Source: Octopus sinensis (lineage: Eukaryota). From it: a stretch of 64,000 nucleotides of DNA. The DNA is taken from positions 168,206,001 through 168,270,000 of the forward strand of contig NC_042999.1 of the NCBI RefSeq assembly GCF_006345805.1, in the 5' to 3' direction. The position numbers and the translations under genes were made by a program. The notes beneath the pieces are model-generated. The model was not told where the DNA came from. It worked only from the letters and a program-made list of their open reading frames with translations, and ran no database searches. Positions 6,461 through 64,000 of the stretch are shown here, one piece after another; within the stretch, counting starts at the first letter, position 1; every line of letters begins with the position of its first letter.

Positions 6461-7632
6461 TGTCATACAAAATGTATTTTAAAGCAATAATATTTCAATT
6501 CAAACCTTTCATCATAATTTTATGTAAGAATTTTTTGTTAACTTATGATTCAAGCACCTGATTAATGATGATTTAATCCAAACTCCTGATTAATGATGAA
6601 AAATGTGATTTTGCTAAATAAATCCTATCAAATTCTTGATTAATTTCCGAATTAATTAATATACATTGACATTATATTTTACTTAATTATGATCACTAAA
6701 GGGTTGCAGTAAACTTGAGTATTGTTTCATCATCATCGAAAAACTGCAGAAAATGTAAAATAAATTTTGACAGTTAAAAATATACCAGTAGCTCATATTT
6801 AGTTAATAATATCATGATTTGTACTTCTAAACACTTTACCCTTGTGCTACTAGCCTGTCTGAGATCACTCTGGTTCTGTGATACAAATTTCTTGTTTTTA
6901 ACTGATTTAATCAAAACTTTCCATCAAAATCTCATGTTGATTTTTCAAACACCAGAATAATTATATAAAAATTATTTTATTAAATTCTCCAATATTTTAA
7001 AAATTAATTGAATCAAAAACAATGTATTTTAATGGAAATATAGTAATGAAAGCATTAAGGAACCATTTTAGCAGAATCATTAGAATAGTATATTTTAGTA
7101 GAAGGGTTAGGCTTCCCTAAGAGGTAGTACTCTGTAAGTAATTGAAAAAGAACAAAGAATATGTCACATTTAGTAAAATAGAAATAGGTTTAAACTTTTT
7201 TTACCTTGTCTAACACTAAGCAAAGAAAGAACAATTATATGAATGCATATTCTATTTTATCAAATCATTAATAAAGTGGTTGTTGGAATCAGTCAGTTTC
7301 AGAACCACTGCATCAGAGCATTGAACAGAATATGGTATTTGTTCCAGTTTTCTGCACTGAGTTCAATTCCTGAGGTTGATGAAGTTCCAGTCAAGTACTG
7401 GGGTTCTTGCTTTTATCCCTTTCTTTTGTTTTTATCCCTTTCTTTCACTCTTGATTAGTGGTTCTTAACTGGGGTCCATATAAGAATTTAGTGGGGTCCA
7501 AACAAGCAAAATAGTAAATTGGGATCCATAGTAGTATTTTAAGGGTCCATGAAAAAAATTTTGCTTTAGACGTATTTATTGCAAGAAACGGCCGGGTTTC
7601 TTTCTCCTCTCAGGCTTTGCATACTTCAACAT

Positions 7633-8552
7633 GTTTCCAGTCACACAAAAATTTACACACACATACACACACATATATTTCCAGTCACACAAACATATAC
7701 ACACACACACACATATATTTCCAGTCACACAAACATATACACACACACACACATATATTTCCAGTCACACAAACATATACACACACACACACATATATTT
7801 CCAGTCACACAAACATATACACACACACAACACATATATTTCCAGTCACACAAACATATACACACACACACACATATTTCCAGTCACACAACATATACAC
7901 ACACACACACATATTTCCAGTCACACAAACATATACACACACACACATATATTTCCAGTCACAAAACATATACACACACATATTTCCAGTCACACAAACA
8001 TACACACGCACACATATATTTCCAGTCCACAAACATATACACACACTATATTTCCAGTCACACAAACAACACACGCACACATATATTTCCATCACACAAC
8101 ATATACACACACACACATATATTTCCATCACACAACATATACACACACATATATTTCCAGTCACACAAACATATACACACCATATATTTCCAGTCACACA
8201 CAAACATACACACGCACACATATATTTCCAGTCACACAAACATATACACACACACACATATATTTCCAGTCACACAAACATATACACACACATATATTTC
8301 CAGTCACACAAACATATACACACACACACATATATTTCCAGTCACACAAACATATACACACACACACATATATTTCCAGTCACACAAACATACACACGCA
8401 CACATATATTTCCAGTCACACAAACATATACACACACACACATATATTTCCAGTCACACAAACATACACACGCACACATATATTTCCAGTCACACAAACA
8501 TATACACACGCACACATATATTTCCAGTCACACAAACATATACACACACACA
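7633..8552. repeat. Minisatellite, ~36-40 bp unit, more than 20 copies
   Basis: Unit tttccagtcacacaaacatatacacacacacacatata. Confidence 0.95.
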
Positions 8553-9830
8553 GAGTTCTATTGCAAACTTGCACAAGCAAACATGAAAAATGAAAAATAT
8601 GAATTTTGAAAGAAATATCTGTAAAACTAGTTTTTAAATATTGAATAGATATGGAGGTCTACCAGAATGAAATAGTAATCAAAGGACCTGGCTTTGAAAG
8701 TTCTAATCTTGTTACACTATTATACCAATTGTGTCTGAGAATTGTGTAAAGAATATTCAATATTCTACATGTGTGTAGGACACTGAATGCTCAGCTGCTT
8801 ATGTGAATATGACAGAAGAATGAATTCAAATAGTCAAACAACAGAAAATTCATCTTCAAGACTGACAGAGAATCCACCACCCAAATTCCTCATGTCTCTC
8901 ATGATTTACCATTAACATTTCAGTAATCCAAACACAAAGTCAAAAATAATTCTTAAGTTATTAGCCTCGCCTTCCCATATAATACATTAGACTAAAATAT
9001 ACATGTCAACCAATGAAAGAGCCTGAACATGGTCGCTTAACTTGTGAGAAATAGCAACCAAATCTCCCTCAAATTTCACTCTACTCTCTTAAATAAAAGA
9101 TGCATATATTGAACAATTAAGTTGGCAGGTTCATTAGAATGTGAAATATAATGCTTGGCAGTATTTGCTCTGGCTCTGTGCATTCAATTCCTGCTGAGGC
9201 CTGCTTTGCCTTTCTTCTTTCAGGAGAAATAAATAAAGAACCAGTCTATCACTGAAGTTGATTCTTCTCTCTATTTTCTATATTTCTTGTGTTTTTTTCT
9301 GGCAGAAATTAGCTGTGGACAAACCTGGAGAGGGTCATGCTCCACAAGGTTTTTAAAATGCTCTGCATACTACAATAGTACCCCTACAATTCTGTCTGAA
9401 GTTGATGATCCAAAGAAATAAGGACATTGAATAACACCGTTCAAGATGTTGAAAAAGACTATATGATCCTGATTGAAAACCCTTTTATTATCAGTCTACA
9501 CTATTAGGAATTAGGGTTAAAAAAATATGAGTTATATTGATAGTATAAAAAGTATGTCAATATGGAGGAGAATGTATGCCATGTGATGTGGATGGATGTA
9601 GACAGATTCATAAAGATGTGCCAATCACTTAGAGTGGATAGGACTCGTGGAAGTAGGAGACTCAGGAAGACACTGAGCCTTATGGAGGACCAAGATATCT
9701 GGTGCCTTGCTATACTTAAGAAGACCCAGCTTCACAGCAGAATTGTTACTGCTGCTCCCCTGATGGCCTGCAAGAGCCCTGTGCTGGTGCCATGTAAAAA
9801 GCTCCCATACTGGTGCCACATTATAGCACC

Positions 9831-21204: not shown

Positions 21205-22278
21205 AAAGCAGGCAGTGGTGGCCAATGGAGCCACCTCCAAGGGAACACAAAGCACTGCTGTTCATAGTGGCCCTTTCAGACATGCCCTCAGTTGCTAAGA
21301 TGGCCACCCTTGCTAGCTATGCAGATGGCACAAAAGTCTTTCACACAATACAAAACCCTGAAAATATTGCACATCTGCAACAGGAGTTGGATACAATATA
21401 CAGGTGAGCTGAGGACAACAGTATGTAGTTTAATGTAGGTAAGTCCAGGCCCTGTGTTACCGGCACACAAAAGTAAACGACATGTAGACTGGATACACTG
21501 GCCCGGGAAGAATTGCAATCCCTGAGTCAAAATCAGTGCGTGACCTGGGCATTGACATGAGCAATGATGCATCTTTCCAAGAGCATATTGCCAATTTGGT
21601 AATAAAATGCAGATGGCTAGCTGGATGGATCCTCCGAACTTTCAGAACAAGAGAGAAGGAGACACTGATGGTACTTTGGAAGACATTTGTCCTCAGCCGC
21701 TTGCACTACTGCTCCCAACTATGGTCACCACACAATATAAAACTAACAGCAGAATTCGAAGCAATTCAGAGAAGCTACACAAAGAAGATCGTCTCAATGC
21801 AACATGACAGCTACTGGGAAAGACTGAAAGTATTAAAACTCTTCTCCCTAGAGCGAAGGCGGGAGAGATATGCGGTGATATACATCTGGAAAATCCTGGA
21901 GGGTCTTGTCCCAAACTTTGACATTCAAAATTACCCCAACCGCAGAACGGGGCGCCACTGCATGGTGCCAAAGATTCCAATATCACCATCAAAATAAAAG
22001 ACAAGATACTGCAACAGCTTGCGTTTCAGGGGACCACAGCTCTTCAATATCCTTCCTAAATGCCTGAGAGACTTGCATGGTGTGGATGTGGGTTTCTTTA
22101 AAACTAAGCTGAATCTCTTCTTGTCAGGGGTCCCAGATGAACCTACCTCACGACAGGAGACACAGATGCGGGCAGTGGCATCGAACTCCCTTATTGATCA
22201 AGTGCCACGTATCAGAGGTGGATTCACATTTTAGTGTAGCTCATTCAGTGGTGTTCAAGCTAAAACATTTTTAAGGAT
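21205..22278 (+). mobile_element. CR1/L2-group LINE 3' fragment (decayed)
   Basis: YADG(D)TK, RDLG, YCSQLWSP and SLERRRERY motifs, with stops and frameshifts. Near-identical to 38064-39215. Confidence 0.88.
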
Positions 22279-24374: not shown

Positions 24375-25200
24375 TGTTGTGGTTCAACCCGGCTTTCAAT
24401 TTGGCCGTAAAAACTAATATAGGTAAGGAATTCTTTAAATTAGTCTCTAGGCATTTTCAGTAGGACCATAAATTCTATAGAATATTTAATAGAAGAACCC
24501 TTAAGATTAGCTATTCTTGTTGCAGGAATTTCGCCTCTTACATTAGCCACCATAATAGGAATCTGATTGATATTAAGCATGGTGCCAATCCCCTTAAGAA
24601 ATGCAATTGTAAAGATGAATCCTCCTGTCCGTTGGAAGGGAAATGTCTAGTAAAAGGACTCGTTTATAGAGCCAAGGTGCAAATAGAAGGCTCATCGGAA
24701 TACAAGACCTATACAGGGGCTTTGGAAAATTCATTTAAAATGTGATTTTATTCGCATAAAAATTCATTTAGATAACCAGAAAATAGGAAGAGGACCAGCC
24801 TAGCAAAATATGTCTGGGAACTAAACTAAAGGAAACCCCACCTTTCAACGTGACATGGAGCATTCTAGACAGAGCGGCACCATACAGACACGGAGCACAC
24901 AAGAAAAATTTTAAGTGCAATCTTTGCCTGTTAGAAAAATTTTATATTTTATTCAAAGACAATAATTCTTTGAATCAAAGAAGTGAACTGTTGAACTCAT
25001 GCAGGCACACAACCAAATTTAAAATGTCAAACATAAATATCCCATATGGATAGAGTATATTTTGTCTTTTTGTATTTTTGAATTTTGAATTTTTGATTTT
25101 TGATTCTTGGACTAGTCTGTAATCGCACCTATGGATTTGTTTCGCGCTATGCAGATTTCATTCTGTATAGCAAAGTCTCGTGCATATATTTTGTTTATAT
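24375..25200 (+). mobile_element. Penelope-like element 3' fragment (GIY-YIG, Naiad-like)
   Basis: Translates to WFNPAFN..KTNIGKEFFKLVSRHF..IFNRRTLKISYSC..CNC...CPLEGKC...VYRA...YTG...CNLCLLEK...ELLNSCRH, with stops and frameshifts. Confidence 0.8.
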
Positions 25201-25211
25201 TTCTACATATT

Positions 25212-26260
25212 CCTTAGGAAAAACCTTCGACTTTTTATAGTGGCCCTCTCAGATATACCCTCAAATGCCCGGATAGCCACTCTGGCAAGCTATGCAGACG
25301 ATATGAAAGTCTCGCAGAAAATACAGAACCCCAGCTATGTTGCACACCTGCAGCAGGAGTTAGACTCAATCTACAGATGGGCTGAGGATAATAATATGCA
25401 GTTTAATGCTGAAAAATTCCAGGCCCTGCACTACCAGCATCCAAAACTGAATATTAAACTTACAGGATCCGGTCCACAGGGAATTTCAATCCCAGAGCCT
25501 AAGTCTGTGAGGGACCTGGGTATCGACATGAGTGAGGATACCTCTTTCCAAGTAATCATTACCAGGATGGCGACAAAGTGCAGACGCCTGGGTGGATGGA
25601 TCCTAAGAACATTCAGAACCAGAGATAAGGTAACCATGATGGTCCTCTGGTGGACATTCGACCTCAGCCACCTGGATTACTGTTCACAGCTATGGTCACC
25701 CACCAGTGTGAAATTAACAGCGGACCTTGAAGCAATCCAGAGAAGATTCACAAAGAAAATCGTCTCTTTGCAACAGCTCAGCTACTGGGAAAGGTTCAAA
25801 CAGCTAAGACTCTACTCCCTGGAGAGAAGACGGGAGAGGTATGCAGTAATATATGTCTGGAAGATCCTGGAAGGAATTGTACCAAATTTTGGCATTGTAA
25901 GCTACACCAATGCTAGAACGGGACGACACTGCATAGTGCCAAAGATCCCAGCAATGCCATCACACTTCAGGACCAGCTTCTGTAACAGCCTGGGTTTCAA
26001 GGGCCCACAGCTTTTTAATATTCTCCCAAAGAGTCTGAGGAACTTGCACAAAGCAGATGTAGCGATTTTTAAATCAAAGCTGGACCTCTTCCTGTTGAGA
26101 GTCCCAGATGAACCTACCTCATGGCAAGAGGTGCAAATGAGGGTAGCTATATCAAACTCCTTTCTTCACCAAGTGCCACATATTAGAGGAGGCTCTTAGT
26201 AATAACAGTGTAGCACAAAACGGCGGTGCATCAGCATGGCCGCAGCTCTGAGCTGAAACA

Positions 26261-33862: not shown

Positions 33863-34452
33863 TGTATGTATGCATTACTGCTTGTGTAGATTTGTCAAGC
33901 CAAGTGAGACTGTAGTCATGGCCGATGCCAGTGTCAGGTCAGTGGCACGTAAAAATCACCCACTACACTTGGAGTGGTAGGCATTAGGATGGGCATCCAG
34001 CTAAAGAAACCTTGCCAAATCAGATTAGAACCTGGTGCAGCCCCTTAATTTTTCTAAATTGTTCTTGGTAGATTTTTGCTTTGCAGATTTGTTAGTGTGT
34101 ACAGCAACAAATCTGTATATTCCTATTTTTTGATTACATCATACTTTCATTTCTTCTATTTAGCAATGTTTGTAACTCTGGTCAGACAGTTCCCCCCCCC
34201 CTCTGCCGCCGACCACAGGCTTACCAGTTTCCAGTCAAACCGCCCAGCCCATGCCAGCTTGAAAACAGATGTTAAATGATGATTGCTAGTTAGTAGTACT
34301 GGGTTCAAATTATTTCAGAGGATATTTCTGCAATAGAATGTATAGCCTATTAATAGAAGATGCTCTCAACCAATTGATTTGAGACACATTAGTTTACAAT
34401 GACAAATTTTGGTTATGGCAAAAAAAAAAAAAAAAGTAGTCTAAATTGTTAC

Positions 34453-34690
34453 CTGCAGATATGACATGGCTTTGTAAGCTGTCACTTTGAAGGCTGTCAC
34501 TGTGCAAACTATCTTCGGACTGATCCCCTTCACTACTATAGCCTGATGGAGGTTGACATTCAAGACCTTGCTTTTGTCGTTTTATGGCAATATCCTCTCG
34601 TTTTTCTCTATCAAAAGCTCGAACTGCAATCACAGATTTCAGCTCATGCATCATACGTTTTGATTCTTCCATATCTTTCCTTTGTTTTTC
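34453..34690 (-). CDS. VEZT: Vezatin coding exon
   Basis: Encodes EKQRKDMEESKRMMHELKSVIAVRA (cf. ERQKREHEESKRVLQELKSVL). Acceptor caaccag, donor gtaaca, phase 1. Confidence 0.85.
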
Positions 34691-35236
34691 CTGGTTGATT
34701 TAAACATACCATTACTGGATTTATTTCTACATGTAAATGCAAGTTTCAACAAATATACATTCATATGCAAAATTACAGACATGTGAACACACACACAAAC
34801 ACACACACATGCCAAGAAAGGAGATAAATATTTACATTTATTCAATTCATATTATTAAAAGTAATATCTCTTATATACCTGGAAATCTTACAACATTTTG
34901 TTAAGCAGACTCTGAAGATTTGCTGGTGTAATCTATTTATAAGGCTTTTGCTTATCTAACATATTGTTAATGAACACATGTAAGATGCATTAAATAAACA
35001 TAAATATTTATCTCCCCACTTAGTTTATATTTGTACTCCGTGTTTACAACACTGGAATGAAACTACTGAAAGAAACAGTGAATATTATCAAATTTGCTCC
35101 TCCTGTATGGATCTTTGGAAATATAACCAAACACACAGAATTATAAACATTCATTACAGGTTGTGGTAAATAAACCATATCAAACAAATATATGTGTATG
35201 TGTTTTTTTTTGCAGGTGGGTGGGAGAGTGTGTGTA

Positions 35237-35312
<76 letters not shown>

Positions 35313-35615
35313 TTGTATACTGTCAACTTAACATGACAGTCCCGTAAAGGGAATCACACCACTGCTATTTAGCCCTAGGAAGCATCGATGTTTCCTAGGG
35401 CTAAATAGCGGTGCTGTGATTCCCTTTATGGGACTGTCACATTAAGTTGACAGTATACAACCGCTCTATCGTTCCACCACTGCTCATATCTCTCTGAGAT
35501 ATTTAGAAATTTAATATTTTTAATTTTGGTGATCAGTGAATAAACTTCACTGAGAATATATATATTTGCGAAGGCTTTACAAGCATCTTCAGCTAGCAGG
35601 CCATGCTACTCCAGA

Positions 35616-37731
35616 GATGTTTTTGAGTTTTTTTTGAGAAGTGAGACCGATGTGGAACCGTCATGTCGGGCGGTGCGAGAGAAATGAAGACGTATGCAGA
35701 GATCGCCAAAGCACGGGAAACCGAGAACACATACAAGATAGAGGATGTGAATATGGAGTGTGATATAGACAAGTTGAGGAAGTACAGCAAAATGGTGAAA
35801 GAAGAAGGAACGAACATAAAACTAGTCATGCCAGAAGAAGAGAAAAAGAAAGAGGAAAGAAAAACCAGTAATTTTTAGAACATTTTCTAAGGAGAACAGA
35901 AGGGTTGAGAGAGCCCCAGATGATGAAATAGAAGATCTAATAATGAGCTGTATTGATGAGGAAATAATTTTCATCACAAAAGGAAAATTTTATGGAACAG
36001 GCGCAGGAGTGGCTGTGTGGTAAGTAGCTTGCTAACCAACCACATGGTTCCGGGTTCAGTCCCACTGCGTGGCATCTTGGGCAAGTGTCTTCTGCTATAG
36101 CCCCGGGCTGACTAATGCCTTGTGAGTGGATTTGGTAGACGGAAACTGAAAGAAGCCTGTCGTATATATGTATATATATATATATGTATGAGTTTGTGTG
36201 TCTGTGTTAGTCCCCCTAGCGTTGCTTGACAACCGATGCTGGTGTGTTTACGTCCCCGTCACTTAGCGGTTCGGCAAAAGAGACCGATAGAATAAGTACT
36301 GGGCTTACAAAGAATAAGTCCCGGGGTCGATTTTCTCGACTAAAGGTGGTGCTCCAGCATGGCCGCAGTCAAATGACTGAAACAAGTAAAAGAGTAAGAG
36401 AGTAACATTTGGAACGGAAGAAGAGACAGCACAGAATGCAAAGGCATGATAGAAGGACACAAATGGACACTATTACCATGCACACCAGGGAAGAAATTAG
36501 TAAAAATCAGAGTTAGGCGGATACCACCAATGATAGAGCCTGAGTGGGTGATAGTGGGCATTTTTGGCGAAAAACTACAGGAAAAAAAAACCCAGATCTG
36601 GAGATTCACTTTGTAAGCAAGACCGAATGCTGACATTTTGGGGGATTTAGTTTAGAAATTGTCGAAAATGTAAGCCCAGAGTATTAAGAGAAAATACCAG
36701 AAACAATAGAGCTGCCAACGGGAGAAAAGTTGGAGATAATACTGAGAGGAAGACCACCCAAATGTTAGAAATGTGGCAAGAGAGGACATAAAATGAAAAA
36801 TTGTCTGGAAGAGGATTTTTTAAGATATGCAGATATAGATTTTATGACACTTAAAGAAAAACAGGTTGAGAGAAAATGCAGGAAAAGAGAAAGAAAGAAG
36901 TCTCCAACAACAGCAGAGATAAAGAGGAGTAAAGGAATGGAGGAGGAAATGCAACAAAGAACAGAAAATGTTGAGGAACCATCAACAGAGATAACAGAAG
37001 GAGAGGTGGAATTACAAAGTGATGAGGAGGTTGAACGAAAATGCCTTGACTCACATGAGAAAACACACAGAAAGAGGATGAGAAAGTGCAGTCGGATGAA
37101 TGCACAGACGAGCAAGAGTGCGAAAGCATAGAGATGAAAGGACCAGAGCGGGGAGATGTATTGGAAGAGAATGGAAATGGAAAAAGGAAGAAGAAAATGC
37201 GAGGAAAACAAAAACAACAAGTAAAACACAGTGAGATAGGTTAAAGGAAAGTAAGTATATAAATTTGTGGAAAGTACTACAATTAAAAAAGAAGCATATG
37301 AACATTGTAAATTATTGTAAAAAAAAAGAAGAAATAATGAATTGATGAACAAACAAGTATTAAAAATGTTATTTTGTTGGAAAAAAAAAGGACACAGATG
37401 AACATTTGATTTAAAGATAGGAAATGAAAGGAAAGGTCACGGTTTTGCATAACAGCGAAACTAGAGGTAGTTTTAAGAATAATTGTAAAGTGTGTTTGTA
37501 TAGTTAATTGTAAAGTTTAATAGTACAAACAAGCACTTAAAATGTTATTTTTGTTGGAAAAAAAAGGAATTGTAAAGACATTCACGGTTCATCTCGTAGT
37601 GGGGGCGAGATGGCCATCTCATTTGCATCATATTCATTCATTCCATTATCATTTTTCATTCGTTTTTATGTCCCCACATGTTTGTGTATGTCCCCTCTGT
37701 GTACAGGCCTTGTGCCTATAATAAAGAGAAA
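35616..37731 (+). mobile_element. ORF1-only non-LTR retroelement (L1/Tx1-like gag with CCHC knuckle), decayed
   Basis: Flanked by duplicated aggccatgctactccaga. ORF begins MSGGAREMKTYAEIAK; contains IPETIELPTGEKLEIILRGRPPKC*KCGKRGHKMKNC. No RT or endonuclease seen. Ends aataaagagaaa. Confidence 0.7.
36001..36403 (+). mobile_element. tRNA-derived SINE nested in the ORF1-only element
   Basis: Full-length match to the family; interrupts the gag-like ORF. Confidence 0.88.
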
Positions 37732-37743
37732 AGGCCATGCTAC

Positions 37744-37789
37744 TCCAGACTGATGATGAGCAAAACTCAGAAACATAAAGGTCTCTAGA
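37744..37789 (+). ncRNA. Type I hammerhead ribozyme motif
   Basis: Stem I tccaga/tctaga (one mismatch), CTGATGA, stem II tgag-caaaa-ctca, GAAA, minimal stem III c-ataaag-g, cleavage triplet GTC at 37781-37783. Confidence 0.78.
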
Positions 37790-38063
37790 TGCGGGCCTAG
37801 CTGTTGGGGGTGCTTGTCTCCCCTTCATAAATATAAGGACACAGGAAATGTGTCAAAGCCGACAGAAAGCGTTGATGCTTCCTAGGGCTAAATAGCAGTG
37901 GTGTGATTCCCTTTATGGGACTGTCACGTTAAGTTGACAGTATACAACTGCTCTATCATTCCACCACCGCTCATATCTCTATGAGATATTTAGAAATTTA
38001 ATATTTTTAATATATATATATATATAGCATCACTCCTTCCAAGTTAGCCTATAAACTTTTCAG

Positions 38064-39215
38064 TGGCTGCACAACTTCCTAAAAGATAGAAGGTAGGCAG
38101 TTGTGAGCAATGGAGCCACCTCCAAGGAAACACAAATAACAAGCGGTGTTCCACAGGGCACTGTCTTGAGGCCACTGCTGTTCATAGTGGCCCTTTCAGA
38201 CATGCCCTCAGTTGCTAAGATGACCACCCTTGCTAGCTATGCAGATGACACAAAAGTCTCCCACGCAATACAAAACCCTAGAAATATTGCACATCTGCAA
38301 CAGGAGTTGGATACAATATACAGGTGGGCTAAGGACAACAACATGCAGTTTAATGCAGGGAAGTTCCAGGCCCTGCACTACCGGCACACAAAGGTAAACG
38401 ACATGCAGACTGGATACACTGGCCCGGGAAGAATTGCAATCCCTGAGTCAAAATCAGTGCATGACCTGGGCATTGACATGAGCAATGATGCATCTTTCCA
38501 AGTGCATATTATTAATCTGGTGATAAAATGCAGACGGCTAGCTGGATGGATTCTTCAAACTTTCAGAACAAGAGAGAAGGAGACACTGATGGTCCTCTGG
38601 AAAACTTTCTTCCTCAGCTGCTTGGACTACTGCTCCCAACTATGGTCACCACACAATATAAAACTAACAGCAGAACTCGAAGCAATTCAAAGAAGCTACA
38701 CAAAGAAAATCGTCTCAATGCAACATGACAGCTACTGGGAAAGACTGAAAGTATTAAACCTCTTCTCCCTAGAGCGAAGGCAGGAGAGATATGTGGTGAT
38801 ATACATCTGGAAAATCCTGGAGGGTCTTGTCCCAAACTTTGGCATTCAAAGTTACCCCCACCGTAGAATGGTTCCAAAGATTCCAACATCACCATCAAAA
38901 TACAAGACCAGATACTGCAACAGCTTGGGTTTCAGAGGACCACAGCTCTTTAACATCCTCCCTAAATGCCTGAGAGACTTGCATGGTGTGGATGTGGGTT
39001 TCTTTAAAACTAAATTGGATCTCTTCTTGTCGGGGGTCCCAGATGAACCTACCTCACGACAGGAGACACAGATGCAGGCAACGGCATCGAATTCCCTTGT
39101 TGACCAAGTGCCACGTATCAGAGGTGGATTCACAAATTAGTGTAGCTCGTTCAGCGGTGGTGCCCCAGCATGGCCGCAGCCTTCGGGCTAAAACATTTTT
39201 AAGGATTTAAGGATT
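38064..39215 (+). mobile_element. CR1/L2-group LINE 3' fragment
   Basis: SGVPQGTVLRPLLF and YADDTK in an open 345-aa frame; tail (aaggattt)n then (TA)n. Confidence 0.9.
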
Positions 39216-39246
<31 letters not shown>

Positions 39247-39256
39247 ACACATAGAT

Positions 39257-39327
<71 letters not shown>

Positions 39328-39334
39328 AACACAT

Positions 39335-40562
39335 AAAGGCGGGCTGAAAAGTTTATAGGCTAACTTGGAAGGAGTGATGAAATCTAGCATGCATTAATTT
39401 CAACTTTTCTGCATTATTAACTGCAATATTTCTTTCCCTGTAAACTAAGAACACTTCAAATGTAACTGATAGTGATTTCTCTTGAATATGGACAAAATCT
39501 GGCATCACCTTGTTATGAAATAGCTGTAGAAAAAGGGTTTAGTCTCCAAAGATTTTCATACTGACATGCTTGCAACATTAGGGGATGACACTTCAGCTTT
39601 ATCAACAATGCAAAAGTTGGCAACTGAATTTATGAAGGGAACGGAGAATCTTGAAGACTGTCCAAGGTCTGGACATCCTGCAACTGCCACCACCAAGGAA
39701 AACACTTATTGTGTTCACTACATGCTGATGGATGACAGGCCATTGACTATAAATCAAATAGCCAATGCAATTAGCATATCCTGTGAGTGAATTGAGAATA
39801 TGCTGCACAATGGACTTGGCATGACTAAGGTTTCTGCTCAGTGGGTGCCACGTCTTCTGACATCTGATCAAAAGTGCATCAAACTGATCACATCATGACA
39901 AAATCTGGCATTCTTTCAGACAGATCCAGCTATTTCCTTGAATGTTTTCTAACCCAGGATCAGTGTTGGGTTCGTCACTTTGAATCAAAGATAAAGAGAC
40001 AATCATGCAATGGGAAAACCTCTCCTCACCTGACCCAAAGAAGGGAAGGTGATAGCCTCAGTTTCTTGATGTGTTTATTGACTATCTTCAGGTGGGCCAC
40101 ACCATCAATGGAGAGTACTATACAAACTTGCTGAGGTAGTTATGAAAGGTTATCAAGACCAAATTCCCAGGAAAACCGATGAAAGAGGTCTTGTTTCATC
40201 AGAACAATGCTCCAGAACAATGAAGGACTTGAAATGAACAAGTCCTTCATTTCAATGGCTGTTGTGTGTATCTGTGGCTTTGAACTGGCTGATCACCATC
40301 CCTATTCTCCTGACTTGGCCCCATCTGACTATCACCTGTTCTCCAACTTGAAAAATGACTTGGCTGGGAAGCAGCGTTGCAATGATGATGACATCATCTC
40401 TGCTGTTGATGACTTTTTTTTTACCAGCAGGATGAAAGATTCTTCACCAATGGCATCCAAGCACTGCAACATTGATGGAAGTATGTCAACTGCAAGGAAG
40501 GGCGGTATTTTGAAAACTAAACCTTGTTTGGTCACATTCCATGAGAGTATCTTGGTCAGCCA
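39335..40562 (+). mobile_element. Mariner transposon, near full-length, decayed
   Basis: TIR-like gggctgaaaagtttataggct; SAQWVP, HQNNAP, HPYSPDLAPSDYHLF. Confidence 0.85.
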
Positions 40563-41367
40563 ATCCTCATGTGTGAACGTAAGTAGGTGTATATTTATAT
40601 ATATAGATACAAAATTAATGACAAATAGTAACTTGAAAACAAAGTGTAGCTAATATGTTTACACTCAAGTAAGAAAAGGAAGCAGAAATGTCTTTGATGT
40701 TTCAAGTTTAAGATAGTGTAATTGTCGTCACCCTCACCATTATCATCCCTGTATACTGTCTATGTTCCATGCTGATAAGGGTTAGAGAGTTTGACAGGAT
40801 CCAGCAGGATCAAAGACTCTACCATTCTTCAATCTATTTTAGTATGGTTTCCATGGCCGGACACCCTTCCAAATGCCAACCACTTTACAGCATATATTGG
40901 GTAAAGTTTTTGTGCCATAAGTACTAGTAAGGTTAACATGCAGTTTGCAAGATAATGAACCCCAAGAGAGGAAGCTTTATGATAGAAAATGAGGGATTAA
41001 AGTATGCGAGACGGGGGCCTGCAAAGGACAGGTTTCTTGCTGTAGAGGACCTACATAGCTACATGGCTACTCACACTTTAAAAGCGAGGGTGGAATAAGG
41101 GTGGAGCTAAAAAGGGATAAAAATAGTGGTGATGAAGGGCCTGGATGAACCCTCAAGATATGAGCACGTAGATGTGAATGGGGACAGAACTGGGAGTGTG
41201 GGTGGGTAAGAGGCTGCAAGAGTGTATAGGAGAGCAAGTGATGGGGAATGAGTGAGGGGATGAATAAAATGAATGAAAAAGTGTTGAAGGATAAGTAGTG
41301 AGATAGAAAAAAAGTTATATTTTTCACAGTTGCATCACTATATTTGCACACACACAAACAGAGACAC

Positions 41368-41421
<54 letters not shown>

Positions 41422-43092
41422 GAAATCTGTAAAATATTTAGCTTTATGAGCTGGAAATATGAAAATTCACCTTTCTCCACGGCACTTAACTTATTTTATG
41501 AATTCTATAAAAACACAGATCTCTAGGAATCAAACTTTCTTCAATATGGATAAACTCACACCCTCACTTTCATCTTCACTTTCTGGAAAACTAAGAGGTT
41601 TTGAAAAAATTTTTTAAAAACCTGATATATGACTGTGTAATACTAATAGAACTTTTAGAAACCAATTTGTTATCTAAATCTCATTTTTATAGAACTTTCC
41701 ATGATGTTTCACGAATGTAACATCACCCCCTTTGATGTTTGGGAATCTCAGATGTTTTTTTGGCTGATGAGTACGAGTCACCTATATTTACTGCAATCTT
41801 TGTAGTCTTATTAAAGATGTCTTCGTACGAAACAATTGTACCGATATATTGATCCATTCTTGTTGCTTTTTTCCTATATATATATATATATATATATATA
41901 TGGTACATATATCATGTATGTGTGAGATAGTGAGAAACGTTAAAAAGTGGGTGTAATGATTGAGTCAAGTTATGTGTGTGTGTGCGTTTATACACATATG
42001 TACTTTTATCATTACACATATTACAAAACATGAATTCCAATAATAACTGAATTTGCACACAAAACAAAGTCAAATAGAAAGTTATGTAACAGCTTTCTAG
42101 CTTCTCAGTGAGACACTTCATTTAAATTGCAAATGTCCTTAAGAAAGGTAAGAGTGTTATCAATGACATTTCCCTTTTTGTAAAAAAAATATTGTATGCT
42201 AAGAGGAAGCAATAGGAAACCACTTCAGAATATTTCTTCGTTCCAAAGTTTGTTACATTAAGTGCGTTAGCACTCACTTTACAAATTATTTTCATACAGG
42301 AGGCATTTGCAGTTATTCCCTTCAGTCATTCTTTTAAGTGGTCACACTACTTAGTATTCATTCACAAAAAATCCTATGTGCTTCTAAGATGGCCAGTAAT
42401 AGTTAGTTAACTATACTTTGTTGATACCAAAGATCAGACACAATCCCCACTGCATTTTCTACATTTAATTTAAATTCCAGAGTTGTCTTCTTTGCCTTTC
42501 TTGACCAAAATTTATCATCGAATTAATGGTTATTTCCCTTCATAATAGGTATAAATTTAGTTAATTAAAATCACTTAGTACCTTCTGTACCAATTATTTT
42601 CAAGCAGTAGGTGTGTTTTCCCCAGTCATATAATGGGACAGCTGGAAAACAAATATGTAACATAACAATGGCCCCTGTTTGACATGTTTGAGACATGATT
42701 TTATTTTATTATTATAATTCTTTATTATTACATTTTCTTTTCTTTGGTGGGGGGTTTCCAAGTTGCCTGAATTTGTAATACACTATTTCTTCACACACAT
42801 TTCATGAAATTTTAACTAGCTGACCTTCCTATTAGTAAGTGCTGCAGCTGGAAAATATGTCTTCCCAGACTTATGAAGTATGTTTTTATAGAATTCATAA
42901 AATAAGTTAAGTGCCATGGAGAAAGGTGAATTCTCATATTTCAGGCTCATAAAGCTAAATATTTTAGAGATTTCATTTATTATTTTCTCAGGCCATGAAT
43001 ATGTTTTTTCAGACTCTAATTTCCCCTCTATGCTTTAATATAGTCAAATACTGATGAAGCATATCAAAATTTTTAATAGAATATAGATAATA

Positions 43093-43504
43093 GGCGCAGG
43101 AGTGGCTGTGCGGTAAGTAGCTTGCTTACGAACCACATGGTTCTGGGTTCAGTCCCACTGCGTGGCACCTTGGGCAAGTGTCTTCTACTATAGCCCTGGG
43201 CCGACCAAAGCCTTGTGAGTGGATTTGGTAGACGGAAACTGAAAGAAGCCCGTCGTATATATGTATATATATATATATATGCGTGTGTGTGTTTGTGTAT
43301 CTGTGTTTGTCCCCCTAGCATTGCTTGACAACCGATGCTGGTGTGTTTACGTCCCCGTTACTTAGCGGTTCGGCAAAAGAGACCGATAGAATAAGTACTG
43401 GGCTTACAAAAGAATAAGTCCCGGGGTCGAGTTGCTCGATTAAAGGCGGTGCTCCAGCATGGCCGCAGTCAAATGACTGAAACAAGTAAAAGAGTAAAAG
43501 AGTA
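43093..43504 (+). mobile_element. tRNA-derived SINE, major family
   Basis: Full-length match to the family. Confidence 0.88.
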
Positions 43505-43605
43505 TAATAGTGTCAAGATAATATCAATTAAACAGGCTTATTTCAATGAAATTACAGTAGAATGTAAAACTGTAATAAGCTGTAATAATTTTAATTTCAA
43601 CATAC

Positions 43606-43680
43606 CATTTCTTCAACAGATAAATGAACATATTTACAATCAAAATCATCAGCATTCTCATCAGTGAAGCCCTCAAATAC
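43606..43680 (-). CDS. VEZT: Vezatin coding exon
   Basis: Acceptor tttccttttag. Encodes VFEGFTDENADDFDCKYVHLSVEEM (cf. ELEAYVDD...YYLSQED). Donor gtatgt; phase 0/0. Confidence 0.85.
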
Positions 43681-56190: not shown

Positions 56191-58743
56191 CTTTTGTTAG
56201 TCAAGAAAACTAAAGTAACATAATGGCTTTGATTAATAATTTGCACTGATTAAAAATTATTTTGGAAAACATACTAACAAATAAGAGAAGATAAACATTA
56301 TTTTCATATTAAAAAAAATGGAAATAAAATAATTTTACTGAATTATTTAAGTGAATATCTATTTTGGAAATTGTTCATTTCTGTGTAAATTATGAACATA
56401 ACATAGACGAAGTATTCTGGTTTGCAAGATCAGAATCAATATTCAGTGCAATAATTTTAAAATAATATTAATGATATAAGGTTTTCTTCTTTTCTAAATG
56501 AAATAGAAGAAACACTCCATGGTGCAATTCCAATTCTTCTACACCAGCAACTAAGGTATTTTTCAATGTTATTATTATTATTCAGGTCAGTGCCTGGAAT
56601 TGAACTTGGAATCTTGGTGTTAGTAGCCCACACTCTTAACCACTATGCCATATGCCCATGGCCAAATTACAGAGTGAATTTTAGGGCTTATAAATCTAAT
56701 ATTTTCCTATCCTTCCTTAATACACATTCCCATATACTACTCATATCTGCACTCGGTCTGCTTAGGAGGTTGTTGTGTCCTAGCATATGTGCTGCTTCAT
56801 TTAGTTTTTGCATTTTCCAGTGGTGTTCTCTGTCTCTTATTTTAACTTCATCCCACAGGGGGAGGTGGTCTCCATTTTTCCATACATGATCAGCTATAAC
56901 TGATTTATCAATATCTCCTCATGTCACAGCTTTGCAATGTTCCTCTACCCTTATTTTGAGGGGGCAGCATGTTTCGCCTTTGTATAACCTACCACAGCTG
57001 CATGGGATGGAGTACATGCAGTCTTTGGTCATATTCTCTTCTATTGGTGATTTTACTCGAAGGAGATATTTGCAAAGTGTTGTATTACTCTTGAATACTG
57101 TCCTGATGTCATATGGGCCACTTATCTTTTGTATCTTTTCAGAGAGGCCTTTCACATAGGGTAGACAGTTTATTGGTTTCATCCTCTCTTTTCTTCATAA
57201 TTGGAGTGGATAGTATACTTTTGGGGTAGTTGTTGCTTAATAGATTGTTATTGAGCTTGATCGTTTCTTCGTGGTGTGTATCATGATCGCTACTTATATC
57301 CTTTGCTCGATGTTTTGGGCCCTGAGCAATCCCTCTCTTTACACTGTGTGGATGGTGGGAACTGAAGTTAAAGTATCATCCAGTGAAGGTCGGCTTGCAG
57401 TATATGGATGTCCTGAATCCATACTTGGTACGTATTATTAATACATCCAGGAATGCCAGCTAACTGCATGGATGGCTTTATTGAGTTCACATGATCTAAC
57501 AGCATTTGAACATCTTCCTGGTGGAGCCACAGTATAAAGGTGTCAGCAACATATCGCAGCCATAAGGTTGGTTTTAGCAGTGTTGATTCTGAAGCCAAAT
57601 TCTCAAAGTATTCCATTTAATATATTGGCTATTATCGGTGATAATGGCGAACCCACAGCCAAACCCTCTTCTTGTTGATATATATCAGTGTCCATACTGA
57701 AATAGGTAGTTTCTACACAGAAGGTCAACATTTCCACCAAATTTCTTATTGGTATACTAGTGCGTTCTTTTAGATGAGTGTTTGTCACTAGTTTTCTTGA
57801 ATCACCGATAGTGCTTCACCAGTTGGGACTTTGGTGAACGGACTTATTACATTTAGACTTACCATCTGGTTGGATTCAATGGGGTATCCTTGATCAATTC
57901 TGTGAAGTGGGTGAAATTCTTCACGTACAATGTTGACTTTCCCAACTGGTGGTGTTGCTTCTATGCACTCATTATCTTGACTGAATCTTCCCCATAACAG
58001 TCCATAAAGCTGTCTGATAAAAAACCACTTCCCAACACACTACAACCACTACTAGCTCAGAGATGCAATTTTTCTTGTCTTCTACAACTATAACAGCTTG
58101 TGCTTCACTCACCTAAACAACTGCATACTACTTTCACCCAAACTTATCTCTTTCTTCATCCTTACAGTGTTTCATTCCTCTAAATCCAACACTAAATGCT
58201 TTGCCTAAATCTTCTAAGCCGCAATAATCTGAATTCCCTATCCATCCATAATTTTCTTACGTATATTAATCTACAGAGCTTCAAGTTGACCAACATTTGA
58301 CCAGACAGTGAAGACTTACAAAAAGTACAAATAATCAGAAAGCCATTTGAATTGTAATGATGTATCATCATCATCACCATTAATATTATAATTGCATTGC
58401 TTGAACAAGCACATTATAGCTTCATTTCAACCTTGTATCAGCCTAAGAATTACTCTCATCATTTGTATTCTTAGAAACTCACACATAGATAAGCAAATCA
58501 TTTCAGCATTTCTGTTATTTTCAAATTAACCCCTATATCATAAATTTTCCAAGGAATAATTTAAAGTTTAATGATAAAGTGACATGAAGCCATCCCAGTT
58601 TTCTAATCAGCTTAATGATGATGATTTCATGGTTTGTTTTCCTAGAGTCAGTCTGTTAGATTAGAATCAATATTTAGCGTACAAATTTGAAAATAATGTG
58701 AATGATAGATACAGTTTTCTTATTTTCTAAAAGAAAAGGATAC
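56191..58743 (-). other. U12-type (minor spliceosome) GT-AG intron of VEZT
   Basis: 5' site GTATCCTTT. Branch-like TTTTCTTGAC 9 nt before the end of the terminal AG, with no polypyrimidine tract. Splicing restores the frame (LR-I-HPL). Confidence 0.8.
56740..57950 (-). mobile_element. Penelope/Poseidon-type element, decayed RT plus GIY-YIG
   Basis: GLAVGSPLSPIIANI, WLRYVADTF, LPYVKGLSEKI, MYSIPCSCGRLYKGET...RVEEH. Confidence 0.87.
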
Positions 58744-62584: not shown

Positions 62585-64000
62585 AGCAGCCACGATCAGT
62601 TGGTGCTTTTTACATGCCACCCACACAGATGCCAATCAAGGCGGCGTTGGCATCAGCCACATTCGGATGGTGCTTTTTATGTGCCACCAGCACAGGTATT
62701 ACAACTACAATTTCCATTTGATATTTATTTTGATGTTGATGTACTTGACTCGATAGGTCTCCTAAAGCACAGCAGGTCACCCTAAAATCCAAGGTAAACA
62801 CAGCAGGTCATTCTCCGATCCAAGGTGCTTTGGATGCAAAACTGGTACAAGAAACAGCCATGAACTCACATTATTTGTCAGGTCTTTGCAGTCACAGTAT
62901 ATTTCCAGAGATCTTGGTCTTTCATCATTGCCTCTGTGAAGCGCAACATTCGAAGATCATGCTTGACCACCTCATCCCATGTCTTCCTGGGTCTCCCTCT
63001 TCCCCGGATACCTTCAACTGTTTGGGAGTGGCACTTCTTCACACATCTCTCCTCATCCATCCGCAGTACATGACCATACCATCGCAAGCGTCTCTCTTGC
63101 ACACCACATCCAATGCTTCTTATGTTCAGCATTTCTCTCAGGGCACTTACACTCTGTCGTGTGTGCACACTGACATTACACATCCAGCAGATCATGCTAG
63201 CTTCATTTCTTTCAAGCCTACACATGTCCTCTGCAGTCACAGCCGATGTTTCACTATTGTGAAGCATGGCAGTTCGCATACATGCATCGTACAATCTACC
63301 TTTCACTCTGAGCGAGAGACCCTTTGTCACCAGTAGGGGTAGAAGCTTTCTAAACTTTACCCAGGCTATTTGTATTCTAGTGGTGACACTCTCTGAGCAT
63401 CCACCTCCACTACTAACTTGGTCACCTAGGTAGAGGAAACTATCAACTACTTCTAGTTTCTCCCCCTGGAGTGTGATGGAATCTGTTTTCTGAGTATCCA
63501 TGGTGTCTATTGCCCCTGTGCATCTGCTGCATACGAAAGCTATCTTCTTGGTTAATTTTCCTTTGATGTTGCTGCACCTTTTATGCGTCCATAGCTTACA
63601 CTGGGTATATATTATGGAGTTTCTACCTACACCTTTTCTACAGATCGAGCAGGGCCACCTACCTGAGGGGGTGTGTGATGAGTTCGCCTTCCTGCTTACT
63701 ATAACTTTGGTCTTTGCTACATTTACTCTAAAGCCTTTTGATTCTAAACCTAGCTTCCACACCCAAAATTTCTTTTCTAGTTCCAGTAGTGATTCTGCTA
63801 TGAGGGCCAAGTCATCAGCATAGAGGAGCTCCCAGGGGCAATGTCTTGAATTTCTTTGTTATTGCCTGGAGGAATATGATGAATAGAAGGGGACTGAGGG
63901 CTGAACCTTGGTGGACCCCTACTTCTACCTGGAATTCTTCACTACATTCATTGCCAATCCTAACCTCTCTGCTTAGGGCCTGTACAGCCCTTATCAACAA
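62585..64000 (-). mobile_element. RTE-clade LINE, frameshifted, runs off window
   Basis: GVHQGSALSPLLF, YADD, same Cys-rich insert and C-terminus as the copy at 296-1939. Confidence 0.92.

Follow-up and report, generated by a model that had tools for sequence, protein, structure and literature searches.

A type I hammerhead motif and a Penelope-like insertion layout in a multi-copy 353-nt octopus repeat found in a vezatin intron

The non-LTR retrozymes of metazoans are non-coding repeats of 150–400 nt (350–390 nt in mussel, 330–353 nt in axolotl) with a GC content below 45%, and in mussel the hammerhead repeats of about 350–390 bp are accompanied by circular RNAs (Cervera and de la Pena 2020, PMC7229834). 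They have been interpreted as non-autonomous derivatives of Penelope-like elements (PLEs), an origin from the PLE pseudo-LTRs (pLTRs) being proposed on a sample of 31 vertebrates, three insects, one coral and no mollusc (Li, Clavereau and Pollet 2026, bioRxiv 10.64898/2026.07.22.740005); hammerheads in PLE pLTRs are described by Cervera 2014 (PMC4209133). Here we ask what kind of element lies, interrupted by a later insertion, in an intron within a 64-kb stretch of Octopus sinensis DNA (the window; all coordinates refer to it). A preliminary description made from the sequence had suggested a cephalopod retrozyme family mobilised by Penelope-like elements, present here in antisense orientation in an intron of VEZT.

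Anatomy of the locus and its host gene

The product of an exon at 59.6–59.9 kb is 99% identical to a vezatin-like protein of Octopus vulgaris (2 matches among 67 candidates) and matches the Pfam Vezatin family with an E-value of 5e-4, below the curated cut-off. When the O. vulgaris protein is mapped onto the window, the exons that flank the element fall on the minus strand, at 43680–43606 and from 34690, so that the host gene, its cephalopod (octopus) origin and its orientation had been identified correctly. Since the hammerhead is on the plus strand, it is antisense to vezatin and is not present in the host pre-mRNA. The neighboring exon at 34349–34690 (minus strand) encodes short S/D/L-rich repeats and aligns to the named O. 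vulgaris protein at 66%, versus 93–100% for most other exons, which perhaps reflects a boundary or repeat-number difference. The features of the locus are as follows.

34691–43605, minus strand: vezatin (VEZT) host intron, between the exons for residues 539–563 and 564 onward of the O. vulgaris protein (protein mapping)
35303–35386, minus strand: inverted 84-nt arm, an inverted 5'-truncated copy of the end of the unit, abutting (AT)n(AG)n on its left (identity to the direct copies)
35387–35470, plus strand: first direct copy of the 84-nt end segment, a putative pLTR-like partial tandem (role after the Fig. 2 legend of Craig et al. 2021, PMC8557442)
35471–35524, plus strand: 54-nt segment that recurs at 37958–38011 and is missing from the inverted arm; putative Penelope-type tail and monomer start (repeat comparison)
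35525–35615, plus strand: left half of the ribozyme module, with the 5' strands of the long helices (35561–35602) and of stem I, ending with the first duplication copy (folds; multi-copy depth at 35554)
35598–35615, plus strand: left copy of the target-site duplication, 18 nt, or 17 with the first A assigned to the insert tail (exact repeat)
35616–37731, plus strand: secondary insert, a broken non-LTR element of the ORF1-like kind, low-copy and rich in A; a CCHC-type knuckle lies near 36763, and the 3' end has AATAAA (sequence, contig depth)
35999–36397, plus strand: SINE-like repeat nested in the insert, with at least nine other long copies in the window (repeat comparison, contig depth)
37732–37749, plus strand: right copy of the target-site duplication, which gives the hammerhead core its stem I 5' strand (exact repeat, alignment to the Rfam HH9 model)
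37750–37783, plus strand: hammerhead core (sequence, HH9 alignment, descriptor scan)
37784–37873, plus strand: the 3' strands of stem I and of the long helices (37794–37835), with the remainder of the unit (folds)
37874–38011, plus strand: second direct copy, comprising the 84-nt end segment and the 54-nt tail, followed by (AT)n (130/138 identity)

The 18-nt exact repeat (35598–35615 = 37732–37749), the longest exact match at the borders of the insert, brackets 2,116 bp. With the insert and one duplicate removed, a period of 353 nt is obtained (35387–35615 plus 37750–37873), confirming the non-coding unit of about 350 nt that had been postulated; its GC content is 41%, its longest stop-free stretch spans 59 codons, and no RT or GIY-YIG ORF, such as an autonomous Penelope-like element would have, was found in it. 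The unit is followed by a tandem repeat of its first 138 nt (37874–38011, identical to 35387–35524 at 130 of 138 positions; about 137 nt had been reported) and preceded, without a spacer, by the inverted arm, which had been put at about 80 nt, measures 84 nt, and is identical to the two direct copies at 76/84 and 79/84 positions. Between the three copies of the 84-nt segment, 9 positions differ. The element as a whole amounts to 1.39 units and contains one hammerhead only, with an (AT)n(AG)n microsatellite as its left flank and (AT)n as its right flank. The 84-bp palindrome formed by the arm and the first direct copy (35303–35470) is expected to produce a long hairpin in the minus-strand vezatin pre-mRNA as well, where it is a possible substrate for A-to-I editing.

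In the account of Craig et al. 2021 (PMC8557442), PLE insertions are characterized by partial tandems, an adjacent inverted truncated copy and a tail of 30–40 bp at one end. Read in these terms, the octopus locus consists of an inverted 84-nt segment, a direct 84-nt segment, one 353-nt monomer and a 54-nt tail, that is, a partial tandem, an adjoining inverted copy and a tail at one end only, in agreement with the Penelope-style inverted and tandem architecture proposed for it. The octopus element is also placed in a microsatellite, the corresponding bias in that account being stated for the Naiad/Chlamys elements. Unlike the insertions described there, the octopus unit has no RT or endonuclease ORF, and its tail is about 54 nt long versus 30–40. 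Of the innermost 10 nt of the inverted arm, 7 agree with the sequence directly in front of the second direct copy, as against 1 of the following 10, and the inversion centre (37864–37882, 35377–35396) falls on a short site of self-complementarity within the unit, from which we infer that the inversion began by fold-back at this site. Family depth peaks there, and many copies of the family may fold back at the same centre.

The insert, without the SINE, is about 1.7 kb long and contains ORF1 only, in a broken frame; no RT was seen in 35616–37731, and the ORF piece has neither a Pfam nor an atlas match. We take it to be a member of an L1/Tx1-like family, resembling half-L1 or Tx1 derivatives. 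The duplication that flanks it stops precisely where the core begins, at the first base of CUGAUGA; a complete proximal hammerhead therefore follows the poly(A) signal of the insert and could cut a transcript 52 nt past the insert end. That this family targets the hammerhead, as a retroelement that parasitises the retrozyme and borrows its ribozyme, nevertheless seems to us highly improbable: the insert is low-copy, and a related 3' end in the contigs (record 24 of sequencing run X9) continues for 567 letters with no hammerhead piece among the matches listed. The one paper found on Tx1 elements with hammerheads is not, by its title, about targeting.

Several other mobile element remnants are present in the window. 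A LINE RT fragment (38097–39140, plus strand, Pfam RVT_1) starts less than 100 bp after the element, and two further LINE RT fragments are located at 21488–21997 and 25171–26199 (both plus strand); all three are presumably CR1-like. Two long RT fragments with a cysteine-rich insertion (296–1951 and 62878–63858, both minus strand, with 551 and 326 codons open) are, we assume, RTE-like. A minisatellite-like array of about 1 kb (7518–8609, plus strand) has all three plus-strand frames open throughout. Finally, another vezatin intron contains a broken, truncated Penelope-like RT with a GIY-YIG fragment, GIY-YIG-like by atlas features (56691–58039, minus strand), for which no terminal repeats were found; considered as a partner of the hammerhead element, it was rejected, as the two share no sequence (best match 11–15 nt) and no minimal hammerhead lies near it.

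The hammerhead motif and its predicted fold

The core consists of CUGAUGA (37750–37756), a stem II of 4 bp with a 5-nt loop and a U-A closing pair (37757–37769), GAAA (37770–37773), a stem III of 2 bp with a 6-nt loop, and GUC (37781–37783), with the predicted cut after 37783. The sequence thus contains the CUGANGA, GAAA and NUH elements and three stems, with the ends in stem I, as in a type I hammerhead. A type I descriptor, built from the known core motifs, has a single match in the 64-kb window (at 37750) and none in 150 locally shuffled windows. In a search of 181 nt, the Rfam model Hammerhead_HH9 (RF02275) matches 37730–37806 over its full length (1–77), including the GGCC helix and the UAC internal loop, with 23.8 bits (E-value 5e-4) versus a gathering score of 52, the octopus sequence differing from the model also in a stem I mismatch and in stem II; a search of 8 kb returned 17 Rfam matches, with no hammerhead family among them. 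The matches to microRNA and snoRNA families were rejected as chance matches to microsatellite, palindrome or box motifs. Since the 5' strand of stem I was copied with the duplication, the HH9 match does not depend on rejoining. At the level of sequence, the type I hammerhead motif is therefore real, as had been proposed, and its cleavage is predicted only.

The designation of the motif as a PLE "minimal" hammerhead has to be abandoned. As defined by Cervera 2014 (PMC4209133), the minimal form has a long helix II, an extra nucleotide before G10.1 and an absent or palindromic helix III, to which the 4-bp stem II and the 2-bp stem III with its 6-nt, non-palindromic loop (self-duplex +1.0 kcal/mol) do not conform. 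This copy of the motif also lacks the G10.1-C11.1 closing pair of stem II, replaced by U-A at 37757/37769, the G-C first pair being highly conserved in hammerheads according to the same source. The proximal stem I has five of six pairs, with a C-A mismatch at 37746/37787. The catalytic fold of this copy is predicted at 7.0 kcal/mol above the minimum, with pairing probabilities of at most 0.04 for stems I and III, and 37747–37751 compete by pairing with 37780–37784. A single hypothetical base that closes stem I would reduce the gap from 7.0 to 3.0 kcal/mol and raise stem I pairing to 0.4–1.0. Every nucleotide of the core is preserved, although the rest of this copy has drifted by several percent. 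Given the single hammerhead, the stem I mismatch, the unusual stem II pair, the antisense position relative to the host transcript and the separation of the distal helices by 2.1 kb, this copy is probably inert; with one hammerhead at the locus, a unit-length RNA cannot be released by two cuts.

Once rejoined, the 109-nt region has a predicted folding energy of −46.3 kcal/mol (z −4.37, reached in 0 of 200 shuffles), versus −26.6 kcal/mol (z −0.29, 71 of 200 shuffles) for its present-day, interrupted counterpart on the right side. The 20 nt to the left of the duplication pair with 37796–37820 at −24.9 kcal/mol, a value attained by none of 736 control 20-mers, and long helices tie 35561–35602 to 37794–37835. 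The 353-nt monomer is predicted to pair strongly with itself, whether folded as a linear (z −4.4) or as a circular molecule (z −5.8), in both cases with 0 of 60 shuffles as stable. These fold predictions indicate that the two halves belong together as one module. The extended stem I envisaged earlier holds for the GGCC and distal helices (pairing probability 1.0) but not for its middle register (35590 with 37803, probability 0.0), where a shifted 15-bp helix is preferred. Likewise, rejoining restores the distal helices, but it adds nothing to the proximal hammerhead, which the duplication has already made complete to the right of the insert.

Family depth and variants in sequencing contigs

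Four of 24 sequencing runs were aligned (X2, X9, X10, X21), and family depth was taken from X2 and X9 as summed contig depth divided by the median of 16 insert bins, a ratio that is not a copy number. This ratio is 18–21x at 37764, 34–38x at 35554, 51–65x at 37793, 126–176x at 35520, 214–223x at 37827 and 676–816x at 37866 (summed depth in X2: 15k at 37764, 163k at 37827 and 495k at 37866). Both halves of the unit are repeated and the insert is comparatively rare; the unit, about 18–800x deeper than the insert in both runs, is multi-copy, as anticipated. A diverged contig (X9, record 17) covers 35435–35615 with 30 other letters and 6 gaps, spans the join between tail and ribozyme, and ends where the duplication ends, the pattern expected of an empty site, this being a single record. 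The empty-site joint is not among the best 15 of 1,561 joints, all 15 of which are in the SINE. The only raw-read run, X21, was dropped: 191 of its 12.9 million reads aligned, at less than 30-fold in any bin, even that of the SINE, and the organism is apparently not in the run. The unit-to-SINE depth ratio is 1.6e-4 in X10 versus 4–6e-3 in X2 and X9; that X10 represents RNA is a guess, contigs do not show RNA level, and no conclusion is based on this difference. Exact-pattern scans of viral contigs (two patterns), metagenome contigs and prokaryote genomes gave no matches.

Among the best 40 of 453 variant rows, eight majority changes are applicable to the monomer; these are one-sided changes, with no two-sided covariation. 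Four are at unpaired positions and neutral, and four are at paired or 1x1 mismatch positions, each of them improving the pairing. Together they contribute −15.6 kcal/mol, a value reached by none of 250 random sets. As contigs from inversion centres can align at 37866 and 37873, these two variants were left out of a stricter test, in which the remaining six still contribute −8.7 kcal/mol (0 of 400 random sets of the same type). None of the best 40 rows changes the core or closes stem I, and two variants near the core leave the catalytic-fold gap as it is. The fold of the family is thus predicted to be better than that of this copy, which fits a structured RNA whose copy at this locus is decaying.

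Origin of the element and its significance

In our view, the locus probably represents a single decayed copy of a non-coding repeat that is 353 nt long, multi-copy in octopus and endowed with a type I hammerhead motif. The repeat is likely a non-autonomous Penelope-like element (a non-LTR retrozyme), and a second insertion, itself low-copy, later interrupted this copy. It resembles the metazoan non-LTR retrozymes (PMC7229834) in unit size, GC content, a type I hammerhead with a short stem III and a self-paired predicted circle, and differs from them in comprising 1.39 units with one hammerhead, in its inverted arm and tail and in the U-A pair of stem II. In the data of Li et al. 2026, solo monomers are common and about 42–44% of Xenopus copies are intronic; the octopus copy is likewise single-hammerhead and intronic. 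Their "active" class requires two complete hammerheads, so that this locus, with one, lies outside it. The idea of a Penelope-mobilised cephalopod retrozyme is supported in part, for the motif, the multi-copy unit, the architecture, the cephalopod host and the antisense position in VEZT, its further elements (tandem arrays with two hammerheads, cleavage, dimer action, circles and the mobilising element) being putative.

By analogy with other animals, multimeric transcripts of the family would undergo self-cleavage after GUC. With a stem III of only 2 bp, dimers would probably be cut more efficiently (dimer cleavage: Lunse et al., as cited in a review), a step that the non-palindromic loop 3 would weaken. 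The monomers may then be ligated into circles by a host ligase of the RtcB type, as work on mussel, coral and axolotl would suggest, and the circles could serve as templates for a Penelope-type RT with a GIY-YIG endonuclease that would copy the RNA into an AT microsatellite. Such a cycle would account for the structure seen here, in which the copy exceeds unit length (1.39 units), has its tail at one end and begins with a truncated arm that is inverted and folds back at the self-complementary site. Later, an ORF1-like non-LTR element carrying a SINE would have landed directly in front of the catalytic core and given rise to the 18-bp duplication.

The strongest alternative, which we regard as rather unlikely, is that the locus is only the truncated pseudo-LTR end of an autonomous Penelope-like element in short partial tandems, so that the 353-nt period does not represent an independent family. 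The sharp increase in depth near the end segment is what 5'-truncated copies with a common 3' end would produce, PLE pLTRs carry hammerheads (PMC4209133), and PLEs are abundant in O. vulgaris, with 190 Penelope-like families (6.83% of the genome) and 31 recently active families in the figures of the O. vulgaris repeat paper, an abundance that also counts for the retrozyme reading. Against this stand the diverged contig that crosses the tail-to-ribozyme join (one record), the long helices that unite 35561–35602 and 37794–37835 in one module, the lack of any ORF, and the presence of a 4-bp stem II and a stem III, which place the motif nearer to the canonical tandem-repeat type than to the minimal hammerheads described for PLEs. 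Much less probable is a structured RNA, mobilised by Penelope-like elements, that has lost hammerhead catalysis and retained its fold for recognition by the RT and not for cleavage. The stem II U-A pair, the stem I C-A mismatch, the non-palindromic loop 3 and the competing pairing of 37747–37751 with 37780–37784 would be compatible with such a loss, as would the cleavage in vitro of only one of nine predicted Xenopus retrozyme dimers (Li et al. 2026); yet the core nucleotides are all intact and untouched by the best 40 of 453 variant rows, and the single hypothetical base in stem I would suffice to bring its pairing probability to 0.4–1.0. A chance hammerhead match in an ordinary repeat, or an assembly artefact behind the tandem and inverted layout, is scarcely credible despite the Rfam score below the gathering threshold and the microsatellites at both ends, as the descriptor found nothing in 150 shuffles, helices and family variants agree with the fold, and the 9 differing positions of the three 84-nt copies are unlike an assembly duplicate.

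The retrozyme class, its Penelope link and its presence in molluscs are already in print. Cephalopods do not occur in the main text of Cervera and de la Pena 2020 (PMC7229834); for the giant squid genome, 235 hammerhead 1 loci are given in an Rfam-based annotation. In the largely non-subscription full-text literature on octopus or cephalopods that was covered, we found no description of an octopus hammerhead or retrozyme family, and the O. vulgaris repeat paper nowhere uses the word ribozyme, in its text or in its supplement. The family may nevertheless have been listed before, for example in Repbase or Dfam.

The significance of the finding is modest: the non-LTR retrozymes are extended to octopus, and knowledge of the class is unchanged. 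That retrozyme size and the complete insertion signature of Penelope elements occur together in one short locus speaks for the proposed PLE origin outside vertebrates. Should the family produce circles in abundance, like the mussel repeats, the result would be a highly paired RNA in an animal known for its heavy RNA editing.
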